The notes under the pieces were generated by a model. That model saw only the letters and a list, made by a program, of their open reading frames with translations. It searched no databases and had not been told where the DNA came from. A stretch of DNA of 64,000 bases. Source: Escherichia coli. GTDB taxonomy: Bacteria; Pseudomonadota; Gammaproteobacteria; Enterobacterales; Enterobacteriaceae. The DNA is taken from NCBI RefSeq assembly GCF_024298765.1, contig NZ_CP101210.1; one strand, 5' to 3'. How positions within the stretch are numbered: position 1 is the stretch's first letter; each line of letters begins with the position of its first letter. Position numbers and translations under genes: made by a program. Of the stretch, positions 37,148 through 63,693 are shown one piece after another.

Positions 37148-38404
37148 ATGAGTGGACTCAAACAAGAACTGGGGCTGGCCCAGGGCATCGGCCTGCTATC
37201 GACGTCATTATTAGGCACCGGCGTGTTTGCCGTTCCTGCGTTAGCTGCACTGGTAGCAGGCAATAACAGCCTGTGGGCGTGGCCCGTTTTGATTATCTTA
37301 GTGTTCCCGATTGCGATTGTGTTTGCGATTCTGGGTCGCCACTATCCCAGCGCAGGCGGTGTCGCGCACTTCGTCGGTATGGCGTTTGGTTCACGGCTTG
37401 AGCGAGTCACCGGCTGGCTGTTTTTATCGGTCATTCCCGTGGGTTTGCCTGCCGCACTACAAATTGCAGCCGGATTCGGCCAGGCAATGTTTGGCTGGAA
37501 TAGCTGGCAACTGTTGTTGGCAGAACTCGGTACGCTGGCGTTGGTGTGGTATATCGGTACTCGCGGTGCCAGTTCCAGTGCTAATCTACAAACCGTTATT
37601 GCCGGACTTATCGTCGCGCTGATTGTCGCTATCTGGTGGGCGGGCGATATCAAACCTGCGAATATCCCCTTCCCTGCGCCAGGAAATATCGAACTTACCG
37701 GGTTATTTGCTGCGTTATCAGTGATGTTCTGGTGTTTTGTCGGTCTGGAAGCATTTGCCCATCTTGCCTCGGAATTTAAAAATCCAGAGCGTGATTTTCC
37801 TCGTGCTTTGATGATTGGTCTGCTGCTGGCAGGATTAGTCTACTGGGGCTGTACGGTAGTCGTCTTACACTTCGACGCCTATGGTGAACAAATGGCCGCG
37901 GCAGCATCGCTTCCAAAAATTGTAGTGCTGTTGTTCGGTGTAGGAGCGTTATGGATTGCCTGCGTGATTGGCTATCTGGCCTGCTTTGCCAGTCTCAACA
38001 TTTATATACAGAGCTTCGCCCGCCTGGTCTGGTCGCAGGCGCAACATAATCCTGACCACTACCTGGCACGCCTCTCTTCTCGCCATATCCCGAATAATGC
38101 CCTCAATGCGGTGCTCGGCTGCTGCGTGGTGAGCACGTTGGTGATTCATGCTTTAGGGATCAATCTGGACGCACTTATCATCTATGCCAATGGCATCTTT
38201 ATTATGATTTATCTGTTATGCATGCTGGCAGGCTGTAAATTATTGCAAGGACGTTATCGACTACTGGCGGTGGTTGGCGGGCTGTTATGCGTTCTGTTAC
38301 TGGCAATGGTCGGCTGGAAAAGTCTCTATGCGCTAATCATGCTGGCGGGGTTATGGCTGTTTCTGCCAAAACGAAAAACGCCGGAAAATGGCATAACCAC
38401 ATAA
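37148..38404 (+). CDS. yjeH: APC-family amino-acid exporter YjeH
   Basis: ORF track 438 aa trimmed to MSGLKQELGLAQGIGLL; multi-TM. Confidence 0.85.
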   Translation: MSGLKQELGLAQGIGLLSTSLLGTGVFAVPALAALVAGNNSLWAWPVLIILVFPIAIVFAILGRHYPSAGGVAHFVGMAFGSRLERVTGWLFLSVIPVGLPAALQIAAGFGQAMFGWNSWQLLLAELGTLALVWYIGTRGASSSANLQTVIAGLIVALIVAIWWAGDIKPANIPFPAPGNIELTGLFAALSVMFWCFVGLEAFAHLASEFKNPERDFPRALMIGLLLAGLVYWGCTVVVLHFDAYGEQMAAAASLPKIVVLLFGVGALWIACVIGYLACFASLNIYIQSFARLVWSQAQHNPDHYLARLSSRHIPNNALNAVLGCCVVSTLVIHALGINLDALIIYANGIFIMIYLLCMLAGCKLLQGRYRLLAVVGGLLCVLLLAMVGWKSLYALIMLAGLWLFLPKRKTPENGITT

Positions 38405-38419
38405 TCCGGCGTTTCGGCA

Positions 38420-38896
38420 TTAATCCTGGCGATCGTCTTTATGATCAAGGCGGTCGTGGTCATCATCCTTTCGCTGGTACTCACCATCAAAAGTATTACC
38501 GCCACCGGTCCCGGCGCTAAAACCGCCGCCTGGCATGCGAGAAAAGCGCAAATGCGGCATCAACTTCACTGTCAGATGCTTTTGCACCGGCGGCAATAAA
38601 AGCAGAAGACCGAGGAAGTCGGTGAAAAAGCCCGGTAATAAAAGCAGCAAACCGGCAATGATCAGCGAAACACTTTTAATCATCTCCGCCGCTGGGTTTT
38701 CACCCGCCGCCATTTTTTGCTGCATCAGCACGAAATTCTTAAAGCCCTGGTTGCGTACCAGTGACATACCGATAACTGACGTGAATATAACCAGCACGAG
38801 GGTCAGCAATACCCCCAATACATGGGCAACCTGAATAAAGATTGAAATCTCAATATAGACATAAAGGAAAATGGCAATAAAAGGTAACCAGCGCAA
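38420..38896 (-). CDS. fxsA: Inner membrane protein FxsA
   Basis: ORF track 158 aa; hydrophobic N-terminus, acidic/basic C-terminal tail. Confidence 0.88.
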   Translation of the reverse strand: MRWLPFIAIFLYVYIEISIFIQVAHVLGVLLTLVLVIFTSVIGMSLVRNQGFKNFVLMQQKMAAGENPAAEMIKSVSLIIAGLLLLLPGFFTDFLGLLLLLPPVQKHLTVKLMPHLRFSRMPGGGFSAGTGGGNTFDGEYQRKDDDHDRLDHKDDRQD

Positions 38897-39232
38897 AGGT
38901 TTCTCCTGTAATAGCAGCCGGTTAACCCCGGCTACCTGAATGGGTTGCGAATCGCGTTCAGCTTATATTGTGGTCATTAGCAAAATTTCAAGATGTTTGC
39001 GCAACTATTTTTGGTAGTAATCCCAAAGCGGTGATCTATTTCACAAATTAATAATTAAGGGGTAAAAACCGGCACTTAAAGTGATCCAGATTACGGTAGA
39101 AATCCTCAAGCAGCATATGATCTCGGGTATTCGGTCGATGCAGGGGATAATCGTCGGTCGAAAAACATTCGAAACCACATATATTCTGTGTGTTTAAAGC
39201 AAATCATTGGCAGCTTGAAAAAGAAGGTTCAC

Positions 39233-40669
39233 ATGTCAAACAACATTCGTATCGAAGAAGATCTGTTGGGTACCAGGGAAGTTCCAGCTGATGCCTACTA
39301 TGGTGTTCACACTCTGAGAGCGATTGAAAACTTCTATATCAGCAACAACAAAATCAGTGATATTCCTGAATTTGTTCGCGGTATGGTAATGGTTAAAAAA
39401 GCCGCAGCTATGGCAAACAAAGAGCTGCAAACCATTCCTAAAAGTGTAGCGAATGCCATCATTGCCGCATGTGATGAAGTCCTGAACAACGGAAAATGCA
39501 TGGATCAGTTCCCGGTAGACGTCTACCAGGGCGGCGCAGGTACTTCCGTAAACATGAACACCAACGAAGTGCTGGCCAATATCGGTCTGGAACTGATGGG
39601 TCACCAGAAAGGTGAATATCAGTACCTGAACCCGAACGACCATGTTAACAAATGTCAGTCCACTAACGACGCCTACCCGACCGGTTTCCGTATCGCAGTT
39701 TACTCTTCCCTGATTAAGCTGGTAGATGCGATTAACCAACTGCGTGAAGGCTTTGAACGTAAAGCTGTCGAATTCCAGGACATCCTGAAAATGGGTCGTA
39801 CCCAGCTGCAGGACGCAGTACCGATGACCCTCGGTCAGGAATTCCGCGCTTTCAGCATCCTGCTGAAAGAAGAAGTGAAAAACATCCAACGTACCGCTGA
39901 ACTGCTGCTGGAAGTTAACCTTGGCGCAACAGCAATCGGTACTGGTCTGAACACGCCGAAAGAGTACTCTCCGCTGGCAGTGAAAAAACTGGCTGAAGTC
40001 ACTGGCTTCCCATGCGTACCGGCTGAAGACCTGATCGAAGCGACCTCTGACTGCGGCGCTTATGTTATGGTTCACGGCGCGCTGAAACGCCTGGCTGTGA
40101 AGATGTCCAAAATCTGTAACGACCTGCGCTTGCTCTCTTCTGGTCCACGTGCCGGCCTGAACGAGATCAACCTGCCGGAACTGCAGGCGGGCTCTTCCAT
40201 CATGCCAGCTAAAGTAAACCCGGTTGTCCCGGAAGTGGTTAACCAGGTATGCTTCAAAGTCATCGGTAACGACACCACTGTTACCATGGCAGCAGAAGCA
40301 GGTCAGCTGCAGTTGAACGTTATGGAGCCGGTCATTGGCCAGGCCATGTTCGAATCCGTTCACATTCTGACCAACGCTTGCTACAACCTGCTGGAAAAAT
40401 GCATTAACGGCATCACTGCTAACAAAGAAGTGTGCGAAGGTTACGTTTACAACTCTATCGGTATCGTTACTTACCTGAACCCGTTCATCGGTCACCACAA
40501 CGGTGACATCGTGGGTAAAATCTGTGCCGAAACCGGTAAGAGTGTACGTGAAGTCGTTCTGGAACGCGGCCTGTTGACTGAAGCGGAACTTGACGATATT
40601 TTCTCCGTACAGAATCTGATGCACCCGGCTTACAAAGCAAAACGCTATACTGATGAAAGCGAACAGTAA
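39233..40669 (+). CDS. aspA: Aspartate ammonia-lyase
   Basis: ORF trimmed to [24 protein letters not shown] (478 aa); fumarase/aspartase signature [10 protein letters not shown]. Confidence 0.95.
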
Positions 40670-40692
40670 TCGTACAGGGTAGTACAAATAAA

Positions 40693-40722
40693 GAAGGCAC
40701 GTCAGATGACGTGCCTTTTTTC
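40693..40722 (+). terminator. Rho-independent terminator after aspA
   Basis: GGCACGTC-AGAT-GACGTGCC stem-loop followed by TTTTTTC. Confidence 0.78.
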
Positions 40723-40786
40723 TTGTGAGCAGTAACTTAAAAATAACAATCTAATATCAACTTGTTAAAAAACAAGGAAGGCTAAT

Positions 40787-42088
40787 ATGCTAGTTGTAGA
40801 ACTCATCATAGTTTTGCTGGCGATCTTCTTGGGCGCCAGATTGGGGGGAATAGGTATTGGTTTTGCAGGCGGATTGGGGGTGCTGGTTCTTGCCGCTATT
40901 GGCGTTAAACCCGGTAACATCCCGTTCGATGTCATTTCCATTATCATGGCGGTTATCGCCGCTATTTCTGCCATGCAGGTTGCTGGCGGTCTGGACTATC
41001 TGGTTCATCAGACAGAAAAGCTGCTGCGCCGTAACCCGAAATACATCACGATCCTCGCACCGATCGTGACCTATTTCCTGACTATCTTTGCTGGTACTGG
41101 CAACATCTCTCTGGCGACACTGCCAGTTATCGCTGAAGTTGCGAAGGAACAAGGCGTTAAACCTTGCCGTCCGCTGTCTACTGCAGTGGTATCCGCGCAG
41201 ATTGCGATCACCGCATCGCCAATCTCAGCAGCAGTGGTTTACATGTCTTCCGTGATGGAAGGTCATGGCATCAGCTACCTCCATCTGCTCTCCGTGGTCA
41301 TCCCGTCCACCCTGCTGGCGGTTCTGGTGATGTCCTTCCTGGTCACTATGCTGTTCAACTCCAAACTCTCTGACGATCCGATTTATCGCAAGCGTCTGGA
41401 AGAGGGCCTGGTTGAACTGCGCGGTGAAAAGCAGATTGAAATCAAATCCGGTGCAAAAACGTCCGTCTGGCTATTCCTGCTGGGCGTAGTTGGCGTGGTT
41501 ATCTATGCAATCATCAACAGCCCAAGCATGGGTCTGGTTGAAAAACCGCTGATGAACACCACCAACGCAATCCTGATCATCATGCTCAGCGTTGCAACTC
41601 TGACCACCGTTATCTGTAAAGTCGATACCGACAACATCCTCAACTCCAGCACCTTCAAAGCAGGTATGAGCGCCTGTATTTGTATCCTGGGTGTTGCGTG
41701 GCTGGGCGATACTTTCGTTTCCAACAACATCGACTGGATCAAAGATACCGCTGGTGAAGTGATTCAGGGTCATCCGTGGCTGCTGGCCGTCATCTTCTTC
41801 TTTGCTTCTGCTCTGCTGTACTCTCAGGCTGCAACCGCAAAAGCACTGATGCCGATGGCTCTGGCACTGAACGTTTCTCCTCTGACCGCTGTTGCTTCTT
41901 TCGCTGCGGTGTCTGGTCTGTTCATTCTGCCGACCTACCCGACGCTGGTTGCTGCGGTACAGATGGATGACACGGGTACTACCCGTATCGGTAAATTCGT
42001 CTTCAACCATCCGTTCTTCATCCCGGGTACTCTGGGTGTTGCCCTGGCCGTTTGCTTCGGCTTCGTGCTGGGTAGCTTCATGCTGTAA
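40787..42088 (+). CDS. dcuA: Anaerobic C4-dicarboxylate transporter DcuA
   Basis: ORF track 433 aa multi-TM; conserved position after aspA. Confidence 0.93.
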   Translation: MLVVELIIVLLAIFLGARLGGIGIGFAGGLGVLVLAAIGVKPGNIPFDVISIIMAVIAAISAMQVAGGLDYLVHQTEKLLRRNPKYITILAPIVTYFLTIFAGTGNISLATLPVIAEVAKEQGVKPCRPLSTAVVSAQIAITASPISAAVVYMSSVMEGHGISYLHLLSVVIPSTLLAVLVMSFLVTMLFNSKLSDDPIYRKRLEEGLVELRGEKQIEIKSGAKTSVWLFLLGVVGVVIYAIINSPSMGLVEKPLMNTTNAILIIMLSVATLTTVICKVDTDNILNSSTFKAGMSACICILGVAWLGDTFVSNNIDWIKDTAGEVIQGHPWLLAVIFFFASALLYSQAATAKALMPMALALNVSPLTAVASFAAVSGLFILPTYPTLVAAVQMDDTGTTRIGKFVFNHPFFIPGTLGVALAVCFGFVLGSFML

Positions 42089-42202
42089 TGACCAATCGCG
42101 GGGCTTCAGGCCCCGCTTTCTTTCCCGCCGACTAACATCCTTCCCCCGTCCGTTGTATAGTGACCTCTCTCTTGCGGTTCCATCTGTTCTTGCGAGGTGT
42201 TT

Positions 42203-42541
42203 ATGCTTGATGAAAAAAGTTCGAATACCGCGTCTGTCGTGGTGCTATGTACGGCACCGGATGAAGCGACAGCCCAGGATTTAGCCGCCAAAGTGCTGGC
42301 GGAAAAACTGGCGGCCTGCGCGACCTTGATCCCCGGCGCTACCTCTCTCTATTACTGGGAAGGTAAGCTGGAGCAAGAATACGAAGTGCAGATGATTTTA
42401 AAAACTACCGTATCTCTCCAGCAGGCACTGCTGGAATGCCTGAAGTCTCATCATCCATATCAAACCCCGGAACTTCTGGTTTTACCTGTTACACACGGAG
42501 ACACAGATTACCTCTCATGGCTCAACGCATCTTTACGCTGA
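42203..42541 (+). CDS. cutA: Divalent-cation tolerance protein CutA
   Basis: ORF trimmed to [21 protein letters not shown] (112 aa). Confidence 0.9.
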
Positions 42542-44214
42542 TCCTGCTACTTTGCAGCACTTCCGTTTTTGCCGGATTATTCGACGCGCCGGGACGTTCA
42601 CAATTTGTCCCCGCGGATCAAGCCTTTGCTTTTGATTTTCAGCAAAATCAACATGATCTGAATCTGACCTGGCAGATCAAAGACGGTTACTACCTCTACC
42701 GTAAACAGATCCGCATTACGCCGGAACACGCGAAAATTGCTGACGTGCAGCTGCCGCAAGGCGTCTGGCATGAAGATGAGTTTTACGGCAAAAGCGAGAT
42801 TTACCGCGATCGGCTGACGCTTCCCGTAACCATCAACCAGGCGAGTGCGGGAGCAACGTTAACTGTCACCTACCAGGGCTGTGCTGATGCCGGTTTCTGT
42901 TATCCGCCAGAAACCAAAACCGTTCCGTTAAGCGAAGTGGTCGCCAACAACGAAGCGTCACAGCCTGTGTCTGTTCCGCAGCAAGAGCAGCCCACCGCGC
43001 AATTGCCCTTTTCCGCGCTCTGGGCGTTGTTGATCGGTATTGGTATCGCCTTTACGCCATGCGTGCTGCCAATGTACCCACTGATTTCTGGCATCGTGCT
43101 GGGCGGTAAACAGCGGCTTTCCACTGCCAGAGCATTGTTGCTGACCTTTATTTATGTGCAGGGGATGGCGCTGACTTACACGGCGCTGGGTCTGGTGGTT
43201 GCCGCCGCAGGGTTACAGTTCCAGGCGGCGCTACAGCACCCATACGTGCTCATTGGCCTCGCCATCGTCTTTACCTTGCTGGCGATGTCAATGTTTGGCT
43301 TGTTTACTCTGCAACTCCCCTCTTCGCTGCAAACACGTCTCACGCTGATGAGCAATCGCCAACAGGGCGGCTCACCTGGCGGTGTGTTTATTATGGGGGC
43401 GATTGCCGGACTGATCTGTTCACCATGCACCACTGCACCGCTTAGCGCGATTCTGTTGTATATCGCCCAAAGCGGGAACATGTGGCTGGGGGGCGGCACG
43501 CTTTATCTCTATGCGTTGGGCATGGGCCTGCCGCTGATGCTAATAACCGTCTTTGGTAACCGCCTGCTGCCGAAAAGCGGCCCGTGGATGGAACAAGTCA
43601 AAACCGCGTTTGGTTTTGTGATCCTCGCACTGCCGGTCTTCCTGCTGGAGCGAGTGATTGGCGATATATGGGGATTACGCTTGTGGTCGGCGCTTGGTGT
43701 CGCATTCTTTGGCTGGGCCTTTATCACCAGCCTACAGGCCAAACGCGGCTGGATGCGCGTAGTGCAAATAATCCTGCTGGCAGCGGCATTGGTTAGCGTG
43801 CGCCCACTTCAGGATTGGGCATTTGGTGCGACGCATACCGCGCAAACTCAGACGCATCTCAACTTTACACAAATCAAAACGGTAGATGAGTTAAATCAGG
43901 CGCTCGTTGAAGCCAAAGGCAAACCAGTGATGTTAGATCTCTATGCCGACTGGTGCGTCGCCTGTAAAGAGTTTGAGAAATACACCTTCAGCGACCCGCA
44001 GGTGCAAAAAGCGTTAGCAGACACGGTCTTACTTCAGGCCAACGTCACTGTCAACGACGCACAAGATGTGGCGCTGTTAAAGCATCTTAATGTCCTTGGC
44101 CTACCGACAATTCTCTTTTTTGACGGACAAGGCCAGGAGCATCCACAAGCACGCGTCACGGGCTTTATGGATGCTGAAACCTTCAGCGCACATTTGCGCG
44201 ATCGCCAACCGTGA
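42517..44214 (+). CDS. dsbD: Thiol:disulfide interchange protein DsbD
   Basis: ORF trimmed to [19 protein letters not shown] (565 aa); redox Cys pairs incl. C-terminal thioredoxin-like CVACK; overlaps cutA. Confidence 0.93.
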
Positions 44215-44250
44215 ACGACACTTGCAGTGGGAAAGACGGAGGAAAATAGC

Positions 44251-44826
44251 GTGCAACGTGAAGATGTACTGGGAGAAGCCCTGAAATTATTAGAATTACA
44301 AGGGATTGCCAACACCACGCTGGAGATGGTTGCTGAACGTGTGGATTATCCACTGGACGAGCTACGCCGCTTCTGGCCAGACAAAGAGGCAATCCTCTAC
44401 GATGCGCTGCGTTATCTTAGCCAACAGATAGATGTCTGGCGTCGTCAGCTGATGCTGGACGAAACGCAAACCGCCGAACAAAAGTTGCTGGCACGTTATC
44501 AGGCGTTATCGGAGTGCGTTAAAAACAACCGCTATCCGGGCTGTCTGTTTATCGCTGCCTGTACGTTTTATCCCGATCCTGGCCACCCTATTCATCAACT
44601 GGCCGATCAGCAAAAAAGCGCGGCCTACGATTTCACCCACGAACTGTTAACCACGCTGGAAGTTGACGATCCGGCGATGGTAGCAAAGCAGATGGAACTG
44701 GTGCTGGAAGGCTGTTTAAGCCGAATGCTGGTGAATCGTAGCCACGCGGATGTCGACACCGCACATCGGCTGGCAGAAGATATCCTGCGCTTCGCTCGCT
44801 GCCGCCAGGGTGGCGCACTGACCTGA
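44251..44826 (+). CDS. yjdC: TetR-family transcriptional regulator YjdC
   Basis: ORF trimmed to GTG start ([14 protein letters not shown]) after GACGGAGG RBS; TetR HTH. Confidence 0.85.
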
Positions 44827-44893
44827 CAGAAACACAGAAAAGAAGCGATTTGCCGCAATCTTAAGCAGTTGAATCGCTTTTACTGAAATTAGG

Positions 44894-44923
44894 TTGACGA
44901 GATGTGCAGATTACGGTTTAATG
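44894..44923 (+). promoter_or_regulatory. Candidate promoter of tRNA-Phe
   Basis: TTGACG followed about 17 bp later by TTTAAT, about 10 bp upstream of tRNA 5' end. Confidence 0.45.
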
Positions 44924-44932
44924 CGCCCCGTT

Positions 44933-45008
44933 GCCCGGATAGCTCAGTCGGTAGAGCAGGGGATTGAAAATCCCCGTGTCCTTGGTTCGATTCCGAGTCC
45001 GGGCACCA
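44933..45008 (+). tRNA. pheU: tRNA-Phe (anticodon GAA)
   Basis: 76 nt GCCCGGATAGCTCAGTCGGTAGAGCAGGGGATTGAAAATCCCCGTGTCCTTGGTTCGATTCCGAGTCCGGGCACCA; pheU assigned from flanking yjdC. Confidence 0.95.
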
Positions 45009-45020
45009 AATTCATATAAA

Positions 45021-45049
45021 CGGACCTCCACGGAGGTCCGTTTTTCGTT
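45021..45049 (+). terminator. Rho-independent terminator after tRNA-Phe
   Basis: CGGACCTCC-ACGG-AGGTCCG hairpin followed by TTTTTCGTTTT. Confidence 0.75.
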
Positions 45050-45205
45050 TTAGGACGCCACGATTTAAGCGTCCTGCCGCCAAATCAATTCTACCGAACT
45101 CAACCAGACTCCCCCCACATCAACCCCATTGTGTGGGTATAATTGCGGGTATACCCCAGTTCGACAGAATTTGTACCCTCTTTAACGCATTCAGAAGGCT
45201 GAACT

Positions 45206-54291: not shown

Positions 54292-56271
54292 TCAGGTGCC
54301 GATTATGCCGCCGTCGGCTTTTACGATAACGACAGTTGAGGAGCGCGGACGACCAGCCTTATCGCCGTCAGGCCAGCTTGATACTGCCGTCGGATGCTGC
54401 GGATCGCTAAGCCCTTCGCTTGGCTCGCCAGGGTGCTGGATGTTAATAAACAGCGTCCGGTTATCCGGAGTGAACGCGATGCCGGTGATTTCGCAGCCGC
54501 GCGGGCCGGTCAGGAAGCGGCGGAACTCATTGGTACCGGGGATCGTCGCCACCATCTGGTTGTTGCCCATGCCTTTGTAATCTTTACTATTGATGGTTGA
54601 TGACGACACGTCGGTCTGGATCCATAGCACGCCGCGGTGATCGAAGCTCAGGCCATCGGCGCTGCCGAATTCCGCCCCCTTCATGCTGCCTTTGGTTTCC
54701 GGTTTGTCCGTATCGGTGCGACCGCCCATCACAAGAATATCCCAGGCAAACTGCAGCGCGGTCGGGTCACCGTTATGCTCCAACCAGTGAATGATGTGGC
54801 CGTAAACGTTTTTGGCGCGCGGGTTGGCCGCATCCACTGGCGCTTTTCCTTCCTTACCGCGATCGCTGTTGTTGGTGAGCGTGCAGTAAACGCTGCCGGC
54901 GTGATATGGATCGACCGCAATCCACTCCGGGCGGTCCATTTTAGTGGCCCCCACGGCGTCTGCCGCCAGACGGGTTTTAATCAACAGGTCGCCCTGGTTT
55001 TCAAACCCTTTACTGGCGTCGAGCCCATTTTGTCCGAACACCAGCGGTAGCCACTCGCCTTTGCCGTCGTCGTTAAATTTCGCCACGTACAGAGTGCCTT
55101 TTTCCAGCAGGTGCATGTTGGCTTTGCGATCCTGCGGGTTGAATTTTCCTTCCGAGACAAATTTATATATGTATTCGAATTTCTGGTCATCGCCCATATA
55201 GACCACAACGCGGTTATCCGGGGCAATTGTCACCGCTGCGCCTTCGTGTTTGATGCGACCAAGCGCGGTGTGCTTGCGCGGCACTGAATGCGGATCGTAT
55301 GGATCGATTTCCACCACCCAGCCGAAGCGGTTCGGCTCGTTCGGCGTGGCGTCGACGCTGAACCTTTTATCCACTTCGTTCCAGCGGTAAGAGTCGTCGC
55401 TCCCGCTGATACCGTAACGTTTTTCCAGCGGGTTCATCTCTGCTTTTTTTACGAAAATATCGGACCAGTTCTCTTCACACGTCAGATAGGTGCCCCACGG
55501 CGTAAATCCGTTGGCACAGTTCTGCATGGTGCCGAGAATGATTTCGCCTTTCGGATCGTCAACTGTTTGCATCAGTGGGTTATGCAGCGCCGGACCGGTG
55601 ATTTTCATCGGCGTGTTAACGGTGATGCGGCGTGCGAAAGATGACGGGCGCACCACTTCCCAGCCCAGGGGCACTTTTTTTACTTCAATGACCGACACGC
55701 CCATCGCGTTCTGGCCTTTAAGAGCTTTATCGGCGCTCCAGTTGGCATCGCCATCTTTAAACAGTAGACCGTTATCGATGTATTCATGGTTTATGGCAAG
55801 CAGGCCGTGATCGGAGCTGTTCCCGCCCTGCGGCAGGCTAAACCACGCCATGCCGTCGTGGTGCATCCCGGCCTGCGCCGCCTGTTCTTCCGTGGTGTTG
55901 CTACCGTCGGTTTTAAAAACCGGCAGATTTCCGGCAATCCCGGTGGCGTCGCCCCATTTGTAGAAGGGCTTCGCGATGTATCCTTCCGGCACGATAACGG
56001 TATCTTCCGTGGAAACCGGCAGGCTGGTGAAACCGAGCGTCGTCGCTTTGCCGAGGTTACCGCTTGCTTTGGAGACCACTTTCGCCAGCGCGTTTTCCTG
56101 TTTCAGCAGAAATGGGAACGCTGCCGCGGCACCGGCGACCGTGCCTGCCTGTAACAGACGGCGGCGTGACAAATAGACTTCCGCCACCTGCGAAAACGCG
56201 CGGTTATCGCTCGGGTTACTGATTTCTTCACTATGCTCACGTTTGAATAAAGTTTTTAACGGTCTGCCCAT
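54292..56271 (-). CDS. PhoX-family (DUF839) alkaline phosphatase-like protein with twin-arginine signal
   Basis: ORF track 659 aa; SRRRLLQAG Tat motif; conserved blocks LAINHEY, GRIKHEGA, MDRPEWIAV, NIQHPGE which I associate with PhoX-type phosphatases. Confidence 0.6.
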   Translation of the reverse strand: MGRPLKTLFKREHSEEISNPSDNRAFSQVAEVYLSRRRLLQAGTVAGAAAAFPFLLKQENALAKVVSKASGNLGKATTLGFTSLPVSTEDTVIVPEGYIAKPFYKWGDATGIAGNLPVFKTDGSNTTEEQAAQAGMHHDGMAWFSLPQGGNSSDHGLLAINHEYIDNGLLFKDGDANWSADKALKGQNAMGVSVIEVKKVPLGWEVVRPSSFARRITVNTPMKITGPALHNPLMQTVDDPKGEIILGTMQNCANGFTPWGTYLTCEENWSDIFVKKAEMNPLEKRYGISGSDDSYRWNEVDKRFSVDATPNEPNRFGWVVEIDPYDPHSVPRKHTALGRIKHEGAAVTIAPDNRVVVYMGDDQKFEYIYKFVSEGKFNPQDRKANMHLLEKGTLYVAKFNDDGKGEWLPLVFGQNGLDASKGFENQGDLLIKTRLAADAVGATKMDRPEWIAVDPYHAGSVYCTLTNNSDRGKEGKAPVDAANPRAKNVYGHIIHWLEHNGDPTALQFAWDILVMGGRTDTDKPETKGSMKGAEFGSADGLSFDHRGVLWIQTDVSSSTINSKDYKGMGNNQMVATIPGTNEFRRFLTGPRGCEITGIAFTPDNRTLFINIQHPGEPSEGLSDPQHPTAVSSWPDGDKAGRPRSSTVVIVKADGGIIGT

Positions 56272-56876
56272 TGCGGTTTCCTTTCAAAAAATCGATTTCA
56301 AGGGGAATCATTTTTATGCACGTGAGTCTACGGAAAGATTGTTACGGAAATATAACAATTGTCATAAAAAACCGGCGATAAAATCATCTATGGTCGGGAC
56401 GCGGTTTCAGGTATGATGTGAGGCTAGAATTCTGAACGCTCTCTTTTGTTGAGCATATATGGACGTCCCAGATGAGGCAAGTACTGGTTCGATGCGGTTT
56501 GCGACCATATATCCGGCGTCGTTAGTAGGTTCAATGACCTGCGCCATGATGTTATCCGGGCCCTATTTCCTAATCACTACACCGGTATTTGATTACCCAG
56601 GTCAACTTCAGACTGTTACAGGGGCGGTAGCCGTTATCTCATCAGTGAATGTAAACTCAGTTAAAAATATTTTCTATAACTTACTGTTTTTCTTTAATTC
56701 ATCACAACGGCCTTCTGCATATTAAAATCAATACTATCGCTCAAAACACGCCAGATGATTCTTGTCAGCTTATTCGCCAGCGCACCAGTGGTTTTCAGGA
56801 ACCCTCGACGGGCTTCCATCCTTTGCAGACAAATACTCAGACTGTCAGTGAGCTTTTTCACACAGCGCATTACAGA

Positions 56877-57288
56877 CTGAAATGGCACACTGAATTTGGT
56901 CACCTGAACAGAGGTGATATGCTCACCTCAGAACAAGACTGGTGCCCTAATGAAAAAAAGAAATTTTAGCGCAGAGTTTAAACGCTAATCCGCCCAACTG
57001 GTTGTTGACCAGAACTATACGGTGGCAGATGCCGCCAAAGCTATGGATATCGGCCTTTCCACAATGACAAGATGGGTCAAACAACTGCGTGATGAGCGTC
57101 AGGGCAAAACACTAAAAGCCTCTCCGATGACACCAGAACAAATCGAAATACGTGAGCTGAGGAAAAAGCTACAACGCATTGAAATGGAGAATGAAATATT
57201 AAAAAGGCTACTGCACTCTTGATGTCAGCCTCCCTGAACAGTTCTCTATAATAGGGAAACTCAGGACACGTTATCCTTTGGTCACTCT
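56877..57288 (+). mobile_element. IS911-like (IS3 family) remnant: left end plus orfA carrying a nonsense codon; orfB absent
   Basis: Left end TGAAATGGCACACTGAATTTGG..; orfA reads MKKRNFSAEFKR* then ..[39 protein letters not shown]; element ends abruptly near 57288. Confidence 0.7.
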
Positions 57289-58160
57289 CTGTGTAGTGGA
57301 TCGGTAATTCAGGACACCTCATTTTCACTGTTAATGTTAAAAAGTGAAAATGAGGTGATGCATGATCAAAACTCGTCGGACTAAACGTACCTTTTCCCCG
57401 GAGTTCAAGCTTGAAGCTATCGAACAGGTGGTTAAATACCAGCGTGATGTCAGAGAAGTCGCGCTGGCACTCGAGCTCAACCCTGACCATTTGCGTAAAT
57501 AGATACGGTTGTATAAGCAGGAACTTCAGGGTATTGAGCCCGCTGGTAATGCTATTACTCCTGAACAACGCTAAATTAAGCAGCTTAAAGCGCAGATAAA
57601 GCGCCCTGAGATGGAAAAAGAAATACTAAAGCAGGCTGCCGTGCTGATGAGCGAAATCCCCGGGGAAACTGTCGCGCTAATCACACAGCTGAAAGCAAAG
57701 TGGCCAGTGCGGGTTCTTTGTCATTTATTCGGTATTCACCGTAGCATTTATTACGCGCAGGTGAAGCGTCCTGTTAATGTGCAAAGAATTGAATTACGAA
57801 GTCGGGTGAGGGCTGTCCATGCTCTCAGTCGTGGCGCAGTCGGTAGCCGGGCAATCAGTCAGATGTTGCGCCATAGTGGCGTTGATGCAGGCCGGTGGCT
57901 GGCACGACGACTGATGCGGGAATGCGGGCTGACAAGTCGACAGCCAGTTAAACATCACTACCGGGTAAACGAAGACAAAAGTCCGCCATTGCCAAATTTA
58001 CTGAACCGGCAATTTCACCCCGCCGCACCAAACCGCGTCTGGTGCGGCAACATCAGTTTTATTCGCCTGCAGGACAAATGGTGTTATCTCGCACTCGTTG
58101 TTGATTTATATTCACGGCGGATTATCGGTTCAGCCCTCTCATTAACCGCTGATGCTGAGT
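57289..58160 (+). mobile_element. Degenerate IS3-family element: orfA with two in-frame stops, orfB truncated by IS66 insertion
   Basis: orfA from ATG 57362 MIKTRRTKRTFSPEFKLEAIEQV.. with TAG and TAA stops; orfB fragment (ORF 57611..58165) ..RVWCGNISFIRLQDKWCYLALVVDLYSRRIIG.. ends where IS66 end begins. Confidence 0.6.
57316..57357 (+). promoter_or_regulatory. Perfect 15-bp stem hairpin overlapping the ribosome-binding site of the IS3-family orfA
   Basis: CACCTCATTTTCACT-(12 nt)-AGTGAAAATGAGGTG; the 3' arm contains GAGGTG 5 nt upstream of ATG at 57362. Confidence 0.5.
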
Positions 58161-58198
58161 TGTAAGCGTACAGCGAGGGCCGTATTGACGGGGATGTG

Positions 58199-59736
58199 TT
58201 ATTCAGCTGGCAGTGCTATGCGCCACGGAAGCAGTTCGCTGACCCGGTTGACCGGCCAGTCTGCTATGACGCCAAGCACATGGCGAAGGTAACTTTCTGG
58301 ATCCACGTCATTCAGTTTGCACGTCCCTATCAGGCTGTACAGTAGCGCTCCCCGCTCACCACCATGGCCAGAGCCGAAGAACAGGAAGTTTTTACGACCC
58401 AGACTTACCGCCCGCAGGGCATTTTCAGCGATGTTGTTGTCGATTTCCACCCAGCCATCGTTCGCATAGTACGTCAGTGCCGGCCACTGGTTAAGTGCGT
58501 ACGCGAACGCCTTCGCCAACTCTGAGTGTCGCGACAGGGTCTTCATCTTTTCACGCAACCAGCTTTCCAGGGATTTCAACAGCGGTTTCGTTTTTCGCTG
58601 ACGTTCAGCAAGCCGCTGCTCTGCCGGCATTCCCCTTATATCCGCCTCTATGGCGTACAACTGACCGATCTGCTCCAGGGCTTCTTCCGTCAGTGCTGAC
58701 GGGATGCGGACGTGCACATCGTGGATCTTTCGGCGGGCATGAGCCCAGCAGGCAGCTTCCGTTATCCCACCATTGCGATACAGCTCGTTGAACCCGGCGT
58801 ACGCATCCGCTTGCAGCACACCGCTGAAGCAAGCAAGATGAGTCTGCGGATGGATGCCTTTTCTGTCCGGGCTGTAAGCGAACCACACTGCAGGTGCCAA
58901 CGCTGACCCGGCATTGCGGTCATCACGAACATACGCCCACAACCGCCCGGTCTTCGTCTTCTTATTACCCGGCATCAGTACCTGGACCGGGGTATCATCG
59001 GCATGGAGTTTGCCGTCAGTCATGACATAGCCATGAAGCGCCTCTTCCAGCGGAGACAGCAGCCGGCAGCATGCATCCACCCAGCCCGACAGCAGTGAAC
59101 GGCTCAGCTCCACACCTTGCCGGCCGTATATTTCTGACTGGCGATACAGCGGGGTGTGCTCTGCATACTTCGAGGTCAGCACGCGGGCCAGCAGCCCCGG
59201 TCCGGCGATACCCCGCTCGATGGGCCGCGAAGGTGCAGGTGCCTGCACGATGGCATCGCACTGAGTACAGGCATGTTTTTCCCGTACCGTCCGGATAACC
59301 CGGAAGGCGCTACGCATCAACTCCAGCTGTTCGGCGGTATCCTCGCCCAGATAGCTCAGTGAACCGCCGCAGTTCGGGCAGCACGGCGCCGCAGGCAACA
59401 GTCGCTTTTCGTCACGGGGTAGTGATTCAGGGAACGGCTTACGGATGCGGGTCTGACGCAACGGACGCTGTACTGCGGGTCATACACCCTACCAGTCAGC
59501 GTATCGCTCTCTTTCTGAAGCCGGTTCAGATCGGCTTCCATTTGTGCGATACGGCGGGAGACTTTTTCGGAACGACTGCCGAAGTTCATCCGGCGGAGTT
59601 TATCCAGCTGCGCCTGCAGATGGTCTATTTCGCGCTCCCGGTTGCTCAGCTTTTCCTGCAGGGCGTGGATCAGCGCTTCCTGTTCGGCCAGGCGCTGTTT
59701 CAGCAGGAAGATGTCGTCAGAAGAGATGTCGTTCAT
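58199..59736 (-). pseudogene. IS66-family TnpC transposase, split by a frameshift
   Basis: N-terminal 126-aa ORF (59356..59736) and 420-aa ORF (58199..59461) overlap in different frames; together about 530 aa. Confidence 0.7.
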
Positions 59737-59785
59737 AAGCCCGTATTTTACCGGGCTTATTCTGTGACAACCAGGATAAAGAGAT

Positions 59786-60133
59786 TTACAGCATGGTCAG
59801 GGAGGTCAGCAGCCGCTTAGGCTGTCGCCAGTCGATACCTTCCAGCAGCATCGCCAGCTGCGCCTGTGTAAGGAACACTTTGCCATCACGGGCTGACGGC
59901 CAGGCGAAGCGCCCACGCTCCAGCCGTTTGGTCAGGAGGCACAGTCCGTCACCGGTGGACCACAGCAGTTTAACCTGACTGCCGCTGCGGCCCCGGAAAA
60001 TGAAAACATGGCCGGACATGGGATCGTCTTTCAGCGCCGTCTGTACTTTCGCAGCCAGGCCGTTGAAGCCATTTCTCATATCGGTGATACCGGCAACCAG
60101 CCAAATTTTGGTCCCGGAAGGTAACGGGATCAT
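59786..60133 (-). CDS. IS66-family TnpB (orfB)
   Basis: ORF track 115 aa MIPLPSGTKIWLVAGITDMRNGFNGLAAKVQ.., characteristic IS66 orfB. Confidence 0.8.
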   Translation of the reverse strand: MIPLPSGTKIWLVAGITDMRNGFNGLAAKVQTALKDDPMSGHVFIFRGRSGSQVKLLWSTGDGLCLLTKRLERGRFAWPSARDGKVFLTQAQLAMLLEGIDWRQPKRLLTSLTML

Positions 60134-60531
60134 CGCTTCAGTTCCTGTATCAGCAGAGTCAGGAGCTTTTCGCTGACATTGCCATTGAAGCGGAGCGTCC
60201 CGTGCCGGAACGTTACCTCACAGCTGATACTGAGGGTTTCCGGGTCCTCTGCGAGCGATTCTGGCTGTTCGGCAGCTGCATCGAGAGTCACAGGAAGTAG
60301 CTGGGGGCTCTCTGAAGAAGGTAATATCAGCTTTCCCTCGCGCCATTGTTGTCGCCATTTGAACAACAGATTGGCGTTAATGCCATTTTCAAGAGCAAGT
60401 TTTGAGATGTATATCCCGGGTTCACAGGAGGCAGCAACGAGCTGCTGTTTAAATTCGGGAGGATAATTAGGGCAGCCTTTTCGCCTGCCGGGAGTCACAT
60501 TTTTCTGCATATCTGACACTTTGGTTCCCAC
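60130..60531 (-). CDS. IS66-family TnpA (orfA)
   Basis: ORF track 133 aa, HTH-type N-terminus; first gene of IS66 operon. Confidence 0.7.
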   Translation of the reverse strand: MGTKVSDMQKNVTPGRRKGCPNYPPEFKQQLVAASCEPGIYISKLALENGINANLLFKWRQQWREGKLILPSSESPQLLPVTLDAAAEQPESLAEDPETLSISCEVTFRHGTLRFNGNVSEKLLTLLIQELKR

Positions 60532-60587
60532 TACTTATTTGAAGTGCGCCCCAATAGTTAGACACCAGATCTGTAACTGAGGAGCGT

Positions 60588-60943
60588 ATGAGCAAATTTT
60601 CATTAGAATTCAAAAGGGAAGTATCAGAAAAATACCTGGAAGGTGAGCTGAGTTTGAAGTCTGTTGGAAAAATGTACAATATTGACCCCAGCACGGTAAG
60701 GAAATGGGCTTATGTTTACCGTAAGCACGGATTAAAAACACTGACTGGGCAAAAAAGACGTTATGACGATAACTTCAGATTGAATGTGGTCAGAGATGTT
60801 ATTGATAATTCTCTTTCTATAAGGGAAGCTGCAGTGAAGTATGGGATCCCTGCTTTTAACACCATATCCAAATGGATTAAAAAATACAGTGAGGTTGATT
60901 TTTCGATGAAGGGACAAAAGGAAGATTTGAGGCCGAAAACTCC
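60588..60943 (+). pseudogene. IS3-family (IS150-like) orfA-type double-HTH transposase gene, interrupted by IS1
   Basis: ORF track 125 aa MSKFSLEFKREVSEKYLEGELSLKSVGKMYNIDPSTVRKW..; last codons derive from the IS1 left end at 60944. Confidence 0.55.
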
Positions 60944-60998
60944 GGTGATGCTGCCAACTTACTGATTTAGTGTATGATGGTGTTTTTGAGGTGCTCCA

Positions 60999-61274
60999 GT
61001 GGCTTCTGTTTCTATCAGCTGTCCCTCCTGTTCAGCTACTGACGGGGTGGTGCGTAACGGCAAAAGCACCGCCGGACATCAGCGCTATCTCTGCTCTCAC
61101 TGCCGTAAAACATGGCAACTGCAGTTCACTTACACCGCTTCTCAACCCGGTACGCACCAGAAAATCATTGATATGGCCATGAATGGCGTTGGATGCCGGG
61201 CAACAGCCCGCATTATGGGCGTTGGCCTCAACACGATTTTACGTCACTTAAAAAACTCAGGCCGCAGTCGGTAA
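60999..61274 (+). CDS. insA: IS1 InsA
   Basis: ORF track 91 aa [40 protein letters not shown].. Confidence 0.9.
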
Positions 61275-61696
61275 CCTCGCGCATACAGCCGGGCAGTGAT
61301 GTGATTGTCTGCGCTGAAATGGACGAACAGTGGGGCTACGTCGGTGCTAAATCACGTCAGCGATGGCTGTTTTACGCGTATGACAGGATACGGAGGACGG
61401 TTGTGGCGCACGTCTTCGGTGAACGCACTCTGGCCACACTGGAGCGTCTTCTGAGCCTGCTGTCGGCCTTTGAGGTCGTGGTATAGATGACGGATGGCTG
61501 GCCGCTGTATGAATCACGCCTGAAGGGAAAGCTGCACGTTATCAGCAAGCGTTACACTCAGCGCATTGAGCGACATAATCTGAATCTGAGACAACATCTG
61601 GCAAGGCTGGGACGGAAGTTACTGTCGTTCTCAAAATCGGTGGAGTTGCATGACAAGGTCATCGGGCATTATCTGAACATAAAACACTATCAGTAA
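61193..61696 (+). pseudogene. insB: IS1 InsB interrupted by in-frame TAG
   Basis: Track splits InsB into 61193..61486 (..LSAFEVVV*) and 61487..61696 ([12 protein letters not shown]..); sequence GTGGTATAGATGACGG where canonical IS1 has a Trp codon as I recall. Confidence 0.7.
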
Positions 61697-61837
61697 GTTG
61701 GAGTCATTACCTCCTCCCGAACTCAAAGCTATCATACAGATAATTACTGGTTAACCCTATATAGGGCATTTTAAAGTGTTGTGATCTTACCCAGCAATAG
61801 TGGACACGCGGCTAAGTGAGTAAACTCTCAGTCAGAG

Positions 61838-62143
61838 GTGACTCACAAGACAAAACAGTTTCAACCAGTAAAAAAACGTAAACAGCATTCGCCTGAATTT
61901 CTCAGTGAAGCCCTGAAACTTGCTGAACGCATCGGTGTTGCTGCCGCAGCCCGTGAACTCAGCCTGTATGAATCACAGCTCTATGCGTGGCGCAGCAAAC
62001 TGCAGCAACAAATGAGTTCGTCAGAGCGTGAAAGTGAACTGGCCGCTGAAAATGCCCGCCTGAAGCGGCAACTGGCGGAGCAGGCAGAGGAACTGGCTAT
62101 CCTCCAAAAGGCCGCGACATACTTTGCGAATCGTCTGAAATGA
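61838..62143 (+). CDS. IS3 OrfA (HTH protein); canonical ATG appears replaced, GTG start only
   Basis: ORF track 101 aa ..[57 protein letters not shown]. Confidence 0.65.
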
Positions 62144-63006
62144 AGTATGTCTTTATTGAAAAACATCAGGCTGAGTTCAGCATCAAAGCAATGTGCCGCG
62201 TGCTCCGGGTGGCCCGCAGCGGCTGGTATACGTGGTGTCAGCGGCGGACAAGGATAAGCACGCGTCAGCAGTTCCGCCAACACTGCGACAGCGTTGTCCT
62301 CGCGGCTTTTACCCGGTCAAAACAGCGTTACGGTGCCCCACGCCTGACGGATGAACTGCGTGCTCAGGGTTACCCCTTTAACGTAAAAACCGTGGCGGCA
62401 AGCCTGCGCCGTCAGGGACTGAGGGCAAAGGCCTCCCGGAAGTTCAGCCCGGTCAGCTACCGCGCACACGGCCTGCCTGTGTCAGAAAATCTGTTGGAGC
62501 AGGATTTTTACGCCAGTGGCCCGAACCAGAAGTGGGCAGGAGACATCACGTACTTACGTACAGATGAAGGCTGGCTGTATCTGGCAGTGGTCATTGACCT
62601 GTGGTCACGTGCCGTTATTGGCTGGTCAATGTCGCCACGCATGACGGCGCAACTGGCCTGCGATGCCCTGCAGATGGCGCTGTGGCGGCGTAAGAGGCCC
62701 CGGAACGTTATCGTTCACACGGACCGTGGAGGCCAGTACTGTTCAGCAGATTATCAGGCGCAACTGAAGCGGCATAATCTGCGTGGAAGTATGAGCGCAA
62801 AAGGTTGCTGCTACGATAATGCCTGCGTGGAAAGCTTCTTTCATTCGCTGAAAGTGGAATGTATCCATGGAGAACACTTTATCAGCCGGGAAATAATGCG
62901 GGCAACGGTGTTTAATTATATCGAATGTGATTACAATCGGTGGCGGCGGCACAGTTGGTGTGGCGGCCTCAGTCCGGAACAATTTGAAAACCAGAACCTC
63001 GCTTAG
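62140..63006 (+). CDS. IS3 OrfB (DDE transposase catalytic part)
   Basis: ORF track 288 aa with rve-domain motifs (..[39 protein letters not shown]..). Confidence 0.85.
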
Positions 63007-63019
63007 GCCTGTGTCCATA

Positions 63020-63685
63020 TTACGTGGGTAGGATCACTAAGCCAGGAATTAAGTCATTTAAAGATATTTCAAATTCACTGGCAATCGTATCTAATCCTTC
63101 CTTATCAATAGATTCAAGCCATAAATTATAATCAATAGGAAGAAGCAACGGATGAGTAAAGTTCAATCTATTTACTAAAGATGATTTAGTATACTCATCA
63201 TTACTTAGCTCTCCAATAAATTCATTATTTATAGAAACAGCATAGTTCTTTATATATGCTGCTCTGTGCAATTGTGACCATGCGATTTTAAACTCTACAT
63301 AAACCTTTTCAGTTTCATCTGCAATGTCTTTCATTTTTATAAAATGAATATCGAAAATATCACCAAGTTCTTCTAAATATGTTTTATATTCTACACCTAT
63401 TGTTTGTTCAGGATCGAAACCGATACCAATAGTAATTACATTATTCAGATCCCCATTATGGACTAGAGATCTAAATCCATCTATGCGCCTGTTCCCCATA
63501 GCTTCTAAATATATAGGATCACACTGCTCACGGTCTAATATTTGTTGAAGATAAAATAATGCAATTAAAATAGTAGTCTTGCCCGCGCTGTTTGGCCCCA
63601 ATAGTAATGTTACAGGTGCAAAATCAATTTCCTGCCGCTCTCTAACAGATCTGAAATTTTCAAGTACAAGTTTAGTTAATTTCAT
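63020..63685 (-). CDS. ABC-type (AAA_15/AAA_21-like) ATPase, N-terminal 221 aa; reading frame terminated inside IS3 right end (likely truncated)
   Basis: MKLTKLVLENFRSVRERQEIDFAPVTLLLGPNSAGKTT Walker A; stop codon lies within the IS3 terminal sequence; AT-rich. Confidence 0.6.
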   Translation of the reverse strand: MKLTKLVLENFRSVRERQEIDFAPVTLLLGPNSAGKTTILIALFYLQQILDREQCDPIYLEAMGNRRIDGFRSLVHNGDLNNVITIGIGFDPEQTIGVEYKTYLEELGDIFDIHFIKMKDIADETEKVYVEFKIAWSQLHRAAYIKNYAVSINNEFIGELSNDEYTKSSLVNRLNFTHPLLLPIDYNLWLESIDKEGLDTIASEFEISLNDLIPGLVILPT

Positions 63686-63693
63686 AATGAACC

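Follow-up and report, generated by a model that had tools for sequence, protein, structure and literature searches.

A probable nested stack of insertion sequences, later re-joined by recombination, at an internal junction of a pheU/pheV island of Escherichia coli

The 64,000 nucleotides considered here (NCBI RefSeq assembly GCF_024298765.1, contig NZ_CP101210.1; hereafter the window) belong to the chromosome of Escherichia coli and contain, at 56878-63036, a cluster of about 6.2 kb composed of six segments derived from insertion sequences (ISs) plus a scrap of an omptin gene (Table 1). Element boundaries were set by comparison with intact copies taken from other genomes. A first-pass annotation made from the sequence alone had already recognised six IS-derived segments within about 6 kb, and all of them are present essentially where it placed them, the true start being 56878 instead of 56877. 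It had also described each segment as truncated by, or abutting, the next one, which holds for the first four elements but not for IS1 and IS3, both full length and separated by the omptin fragment. Very probably, the cluster is a nested IS stack located at an internal module junction of a pheU/pheV island, which was later re-joined to its neighbours by homologous recombination between IS copies.

Table 1. Segments of the IS cluster and the gene adjoining it on the right, in window coordinates.
Feature	Coordinates	Strand	Extent
IS911-like	56878-57291	+	left 414 bp, left inverted repeat kept
unnamed IS3-family element	57292-58161	+	left 870 bp of ~1257
ISEc8 (IS66 family)	58162-60541	-	positions 62-2442 of 2442
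IS150-group element	60540-60943	+	first ~404 of 1415 bp
IS1	60944-61711	+	full length, 768 bp
omptin (ompT-like) protease gene fragment	61712-61781	-	internal 70 bp, between IS1 and IS3
IS3 isoform	61782-63036	+	full length, 1255 bp
ABC-type ATPase gene 5' part	63037-63685	-	codons 1-216 of 540, cut by IS3 right end

The IS911-like piece, which opens the cluster, still has its left inverted repeat (TGAAATGGCACAC...) and its orfA, matches both the NCBIfam IS3 family and the Pfam HTH_Tnp_1 models and shows 93.3% identity with an intact, annotated IS911; because this identity falls under the 95% convention, it represents a close relative of IS911 and not an isoform. Translation and alignment to IS911 show that codon 13 of its orfA has changed from GAA to TAA (56986-56988), the nonsense codon reported by the first-pass annotation. 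Only one third of the element remains, orfB, the right inverted repeat and a target duplication being absent from the window, and the piece is cut by an unnamed element of the IS3 family. The latter keeps a left inverted repeat (TGTAGTGGATCGG...; TGTAGTGG...) corresponding to the right one in full-length relatives; UTI89 and B1.H1.18 have full-length copies with about 95% identity to it, and ISKpn37 is 77% identical. It is assigned to the IS3 family by its terminal repeats, an orfA/orfB arrangement in the -1 frame and a DDE integrase core, with an NCBIfam IS3 match of 151 bits and Pfam matches to HTH_21 and to a partial rve domain. Two stops interrupt its orfA (TGG to TAG at 57500-02 and GAA to TAA at 57572-74) at codons for which the relatives keep TGG and GAA, and an extra G at 57662-65 places orfB, which lies in the -1 frame in the relatives, in the frame of orfA, fusing both. 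Moreover, orfB is cut by ISEc8 within the integrase-core (rve) domain. Both the two stops and the interruption by an IS66 element had been correctly noticed. The copies of UTI89 and B1.H1.18 are likewise marked as pseudogenes by the NCBI Prokaryotic Genome Annotation Pipeline (PGAP). All three examined copies are thus pseudogenes, with differing stops and frameshifts and no intact copy among them, and hence this lineage may be extinct in E. coli.

The ISEc8 segment proved to be less complete than it seemed. Intact ISEc8, as found in three independent copies, measures 2442 bp, starts with GTAAGCGTACAGCC... and is each time flanked by an 8-bp target duplication. The copy in the window, a defective one, is 99.3% identical to those three and shows a single gap at reference position 1127, where a missing G (window ~59477) causes a frameshift at about codon 87 of tnpC. 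Of its genes, tnpA and tnpB remain open and the order is as expected; the right end still has its repeat (GTAAGCG...). The tnpC lesion had been detected previously; what had been overlooked is that the window copy starts at position 62, its left 61 bp, left inverted repeat included, being absent. A reading of the element as complete and ending at 60541 was consequently wrong, since the three independent copies share 61 further bases, and no matching 8-bp flanks surround it (GCTGAGTT vs AAGTGCGC). In this regard, plasmid pGF4-A carries an intact IS150-group element at the same site of ISEc8 and in the same orientation, bounded by a TATT duplication and with the missing 61 bp on its far side. 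As pGF4-A keeps these 61 bp beyond the insert, the ISEc8 of the window has to be seen as interrupted and not as eroded.

The interrupting IS150-group piece, of a likewise unnamed element, has 100% identity to the intact copies of D10 and pGF4-A, and its insertion site is 61-64 bp into ISEc8 from the left end. It is itself interrupted by IS1, as had been annotated, and keeps its left inverted repeat (TGAAGTGCGCCCC...) and codons 1-118 of the 165 of orfA, after which the frame reads into IS1. The intact element has 1415 bp, a 165-aa orfA product with HTH_28 and HTH_Tnp_1 domains, an A AAA AAG motif at nucleotide 492 and an orfB in another frame. Its size, the two HTH domains, the frameshift motif and the TATT duplication in pGF4-A are those of the IS150 group of the IS3 family, and its identity to IS150 itself is only about 64%.

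The two full-length elements at the right of the cluster have a different history. Within its 768 bp, the IS1 has both 23-bp inverted repeats, an intact insA and the A6C motif, and translation of insB' shows the amber codon reported previously (TGG to TAG at 61484-86), which is common to ACN002 and to the IS1F copy of JCM 20135, PGAP labelling both as 'internal stop'. A column-by-column comparison with XB2, CH4804, ACN002 and the IS1F of JCM 20135 showed that this IS1 is an IS1A/IS1F chimera with its crossover at 61289-61299. The left part (60944-61288) is of IS1A type and agrees with IS1A-type copies at each of the 35 informative sites to the left of 61289, and the right part (61300-61711) matches the IS1F of JCM 20135, amber codon included, except for one private change, in a match that runs on into the 70-bp flank. 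There is no 9-bp target duplication (flanks GAAAACTCC vs TCCTCCCGA), as is consistent with a recombinant origin. In XB2 the IS1A/IS1F boundary lies at 61565-61572 and insB' has no amber codon, a difference in boundary which indicates that conversion among IS1 copies is ongoing. Between XB2 and the window, 32 of the 34 substitutions found in 14 kb fall within a 265-bp tract of IS1 (61300-61564), which is a gene-conversion patch, one through which the insB' of XB2 is open again.

The IS3 isoform is also a chimera, its lineages switching at 61877-61884. Over its 1255 bp it is about 95.6% (95.5-95.8%) identical to the IS3 of K-12 and 99.3% identical to the XDL copy, and it yields an NCBIfam IS3 match of 339 bits. 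Along the first ~95 bp (alignment columns 13-112) there are no mismatches to a remnant in JCM 20135, compared with 6-7 to the XDL and K-12 types, and from 61885 onward it shows 2 differences in ~1160 bp to the XDL type; in that part it differs from JCM 20135 at 41 of 150 columns and from XDL at none of them. Both inverted repeats are present, and orfA (GTG 61838 to 62143) and orfB (62140-63006) are open. The imported left end, however, brought a compensated frameshift (a 1-bp and a 2-bp deletion) and turned the canonical ATG of orfA into AAG, which leaves as sole start codon a GTG overlapping the Shine-Dalgarno sequence. Judged from these features, the element is structurally complete and probably impaired, and PGAP calls the same IS3 intact in XB2 and 'frameshifted' in ACN002 and CH4804. 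Again a target duplication is missing, the flanking triplets being TTG vs CTA. With an IS3 deprived of its canonical start codon and the other five elements demonstrably defective, the view that most transposase genes of the cluster are dead was well founded.

The source of the imported ends is suggested by a remnant beside fecI in JCM 20135 (KpLE2-type region). There, the same junction of IS1F, 70 bp and IS3 is found, with the same IS1F right part and its internal stop, an identical 70 bp and an IS3 whose first ~95 bp are identical too; the window differs from it by an IS1 left part of IS1A type, a complete IS3 of XDL type in place of a remnant, and other flanking genes. The omptin scrap is 95.8% identical to the interior of omptin genes found on plasmids.

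How these six segments came together can be approached from their borders. From the IS911-like piece to the IS150-group element, each keeps its left inverted repeat and ends exactly at the start of the next. In Ch1, a complete ISEc8 with the 61-bp left end stands before the right-hand portion of the IS3-family element (reference 987-1257); this arrangement and that of pGF4-A are earlier states of what is a series of nested insertions. That the elements inserted successively, as the first-pass annotation proposed, thus fits the nested first five, but two of the junctions arose from homologous recombination of one IS copy with another. An account by successive insertions and truncations alone would profit from the simple insertion-type boundaries of the first five elements, with the left end present and cut by the next one, and from the proper duplication that the junction of ISEc8 with the IS150-group element has in pGF4-A. 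It is nevertheless improbable, as the right halves of the first four elements are nowhere in the window, the target-site duplications sought there around ISEc8, IS1 and IS3 were not found, and the switch points of the IS1 and IS3 mosaics coincide with a change of flanking context, which largely refutes it at those junctions.

The build-up that best accommodates nesting followed by recombination would have started with an IS911-like element inserting downstream of a phoX-like gene. The unnamed IS3-family element would then have entered it at nucleotide 414, ISEc8 the orfB of the IS3-family element, the 1415-bp IS150-group element the left end of ISEc8 at 61-64 bp, and an IS1 of IS1A type the orfA of the IS150-group element at nucleotide ~404. 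Finally, crossovers in IS1 (61289-61299) and IS3 (61877-61884) would have brought in a patch of 577 bp (61300-61876) consisting of the IS1F right part, the 70-bp omptin scrap and the IS3 left end, as found beside fecI in K-12-type genomes. In the simplest account, a double crossover or conversion would have joined the IS1A of the stack to an IS3 residing in a defence-type ATPase gene beside type I restriction-modification genes, and the right halves of the first four elements would have been lost at this step. Three nonsense codons, one frameshift and one insertion would have accumulated in the immobilised copies. Boundaries, lesions, chimeric sequences, missing target duplications and differences among strains are observed directly; both the order of these events and a single double crossover as the last of them are what we infer from the arrangement.

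Several points weigh against this scheme. The order of the steps is not provable from one window, and the original right flank that IS1 had on inserting into the IS150-group element survives in none of the examined genomes. The two flanks of ISEc8 in Ch1 lie 112 bp from each other within the IS3-family element, with no 8-bp duplication, so that even this 'ancestral' state had undergone a deletion or a second event. The boundary of XB2 at 61565-61572 requires a second gene conversion or independent events, and the donor of the 577-bp patch is deduced from another strain and not from the source genome.

The position of the stack within the chromosome follows from the left part of the window, where three tRNA-Gly genes lie near 15 kb and the stretch 38392-46981 aligns to the aspA-dcuA-cutA-dsbD-dicD-pheU region of strain ACN002. 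A P4-type integrase gene comes directly after the tRNA-Phe gene (pheU, 44933-45008), which marks the start of a genomic island at pheU; tRNA-Phe and integrase together occupy 44.9-46.3 kb of the window. The tRNA site, the adjacent P4-type integrase, the variable cargo and the presence or absence among strains are those of a tRNA-associated island, whose distal end was not seen within the window. The same island with the same integrase protein (WP_001218753.1) is located at pheU in the window and in ACN002 and at pheV in XB2, the two tRNA-Phe genes being alternative attachment sites for it. Over its first 12 kb there are genes for the integrase, an AAA protein of 1171 aa, a phosphoethanolamine transferase and an outer membrane protein, an ABC-permease pseudogene, and the gene for a PhoX-family phosphatase (54292-56271); the IS cluster starts ~600 bp past phoX.

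With these landmarks, the first-pass view of the cluster as a decaying island end did not stand, and a decayed distal end is now very unlikely. IS debris often gathers at island borders, and the window stops 1 kb past the cluster, so that the first-pass annotation had no view of what follows. The tRNA-Phe gene and the integrase, however, place the cluster 12-18 kb inside the island, with its start about 11.9 kb in, and the right flank of XB2, ACN002 and CH4804 (>99.7% identical over 59721/60024-64000) leads into hsdSMR, cdi, microcin and CP4-like genes. In these three genomes, the DNA past the cluster runs into hsdS/M/R and the cdi genes (cdiBAI), and in XB2 the island has, further on, microcin H47 genes and a CP4-like module, continuing for >50 kb past the cluster. 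Since the cluster lies well within the island, which in the closest relatives goes on beyond it, its site is an internal junction between modules.

Autonomous transposition of any element in the cluster is unlikely. IS1 and IS3 have kept both of their ends and could therefore still be moved in trans, and it is through the homology they offer for further recombination that the cluster affects the adjoining DNA. A mobile unit that still functions, for instance an IS1+IS3 composite mobilising the adjacent defence genes, might be read from those complete inverted repeats, the open frames of IS3 and the intact call by PGAP in XB2; it is very unlikely, given the amber codon in insB', the lost ATG of IS3 orfA, the pairing of different families that enclose only 70 bp and the absence of a target duplication around any combination of IS1 and IS3.

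The lesions themselves are real. XB2, CH4804, Ch1 and FORC_082 were sequenced independently, and their ungapped alignments with the window show no difference at the stop and frameshift sites of the IS911-like piece, the IS3-family element and ISEc8. XB2 matches window 50000-64000 without gaps, CH4804, Ch1 and FORC_082 share the left part in the same way, ACN002 shares the right part, and PGAP independently marks the same pseudogenes in each of these genomes. Lesions identical base for base in independent complete genomes are not sequencing errors, and so an artefact of repeat misjoins or homopolymer errors, despite the repeat-rich region, one lesion in a G-run (57662-65) and a tnpC lesion that is a single-base deletion, has practically no probability left. 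The prospect raised in the first-pass annotation, that resequencing might turn the stops and frameshifts into errors in intact elements, is answered by these same comparisons.

The cluster had also been regarded as a likely hotspot for rearrangement, and the comparison of relatives bears this out, as they differ exactly at IS boundaries. Ch1, FORC_082 and the window each have different DNA to the right of ISEc8, and in CH4804 two copies of an ISEc8'-IS150'-IS1 block flank about 13 kb. This insert of CH4804 (L017 12236-26546) contains an autotransporter gene, IS91, remnants of IS3 and IS66 and two copies of ISEc45, and constitutes either an IS1-bounded insertion or a duplication at the junction. 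XB2 and the window, too, differ in the IS1A/IS1F crossover of their IS1. Among 5,426 complete genomes of E. coli, a single one (XB2) has the whole 8-kb arrangement, and about 90-150 have parts of it.

To the right of the cluster, the hotspot has already claimed a gene. The right end of IS3 abuts codon 216 of a 540-codon gene for an ABC-type ATPase (AAA_15/AAA_21), located just downstream of hsdS. A first homologue search returned truncated or partial homologues only, and an exhaustive search of representative proteins revealed the 540-aa form (P0004), 100% identical over residues 1-216. At the DNA level, contig L020 matches window 63037-63777 exactly and then continues, and the match of the window stops at the IS3 junction. 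In that contig, the only one with an intact ATPase gene (L020 93-2611, Logan), a 298-aa gene overlaps it and follows directly. For the ATPase, the nearest PADLOC entries are PDC-M55A, NsnB, HEC-03B and AriA; the 298-aa partner gave no Pfam match and marginal PADLOC matches only. The rest of the ATPase gene and the partner gene are missing from the window, and with a stump ending at IS3 and the partner gone, a candidate two-gene defence module has been destroyed. The truncated form of the ATPase counts 80 member sequences, and the intact pair is found on one short public contig only. The DNA downstream of this intact pair (L020 2853-3012) is 78% similar to window 46292-46452, just past the island integrase, and the module may elsewhere sit by the integrase-proximal end of an island.

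A mildly new lead, and no more than that, comes from the target of the IS150-group element. ISEc8, ISCro1 and two further IS66-like ends were the IS66 contexts examined, and in each the element is located 61-70 bp inwards from the GTAAGCG (tnpA-proximal) end, always in the spacer of a short palindrome (e.g. CCCAC-N10-GTGG), in both orientations and with 3-4 bp duplications. The sites compared were window 60520-60560, L007 2430-2520 and 3917-3990, L012 3970-4041 and 5455-5525, L021 and L024; one further copy (L022) has a flank of unidentified nature. From these four apparently independent insertions, a strong and so far undescribed preference for such palindromes, at that distance from the tnpA-proximal end of IS66-family elements, can be put forward tentatively, with a little less than even confidence. 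If true, one IS would be hunting another, parting the left inverted repeat of IS66 from the IS66 genes and disabling its host element. The left inverted repeat of the IS150-group element had no exact match in a search of one genome per species.

The behaviour of this element resembles that of IS1397 and ISKpn1, which also belong to the IS150 group of the IS3 family and insert into the loops of palindromic units (PMC1525189). The likeness extends to the spacer of a short palindrome, the 3-4 bp duplication and both orientations. These two elements target repetitive extragenic palindromic (REP) units or bacterial interspersed mosaic elements (BIMEs), whereas the IS150-group element uses a palindrome at an IS66 end.

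Considered as a whole, the arrangement is ordinary. It is already contained in RefSeq genomes with pseudogene flags, and all its elements are from described families. IS nests in the pathogenicity islands and virulence plasmids of E. coli and Shigella are of mixed families, mostly pseudogenised and with strain-variable breakpoints; the cluster of the window is the same in kind, and only its particular combination is unusual. Its copies share gene order and terminal repeats, as expected, with canonical ISEc8, IS3, IS1A/IS1F and IS911, from which they depart by the absent left repeat and frameshifted tnpC of ISEc8, the lost ATG of IS3, the amber codon of IS1 and an IS911-like identity below 95%. 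Beyond bookkeeping the significance is small: the cluster documents a recombination-prone junction in a pheU/pheV island that avian and extraintestinal lineages of E. coli carry, explains the differing gene content to the right of ISEc8 among otherwise near-identical strains, and has already destroyed a defence-type ATPase module beside a type I restriction system. For annotation, a word of caution is due, as 'intact' calls for IS1 and IS3 at this place correspond to mosaic copies, and the copy of ISEc8 is unable to move.

Some minor observations concern the surroundings of the cluster. A scan of 56000-64000 against Rfam, on both strands, found no RNA family, and a literature search on ISEc8 combined with pheU returned nothing relevant. 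Upstream of phoX, 53799-54242 is a frameshifted internal piece of an iron ABC-transporter permease gene, called a pseudogene by PGAP in relatives, and this remnant is a further sign of decay in the first module of the island. A seventh IS was considered in the spacer between phoX and the IS911-like piece (56456-56876), namely the C-terminus of an IS110-family transposase at ~56736-56852 (-). It is not claimed, as it consisted of one weak hidden Markov model match (E = 2.8e-4, 20 bits vs a cut-off of 140) with no IS match at the DNA level, and part of the region matches a gene fragment of a LysR-type regulator. This fragment, ~88% identical, covers 56456-56784, and many F-type plasmids have, with 85% identity and without annotation, a 157-bp piece of the same spacer (56454-56610).

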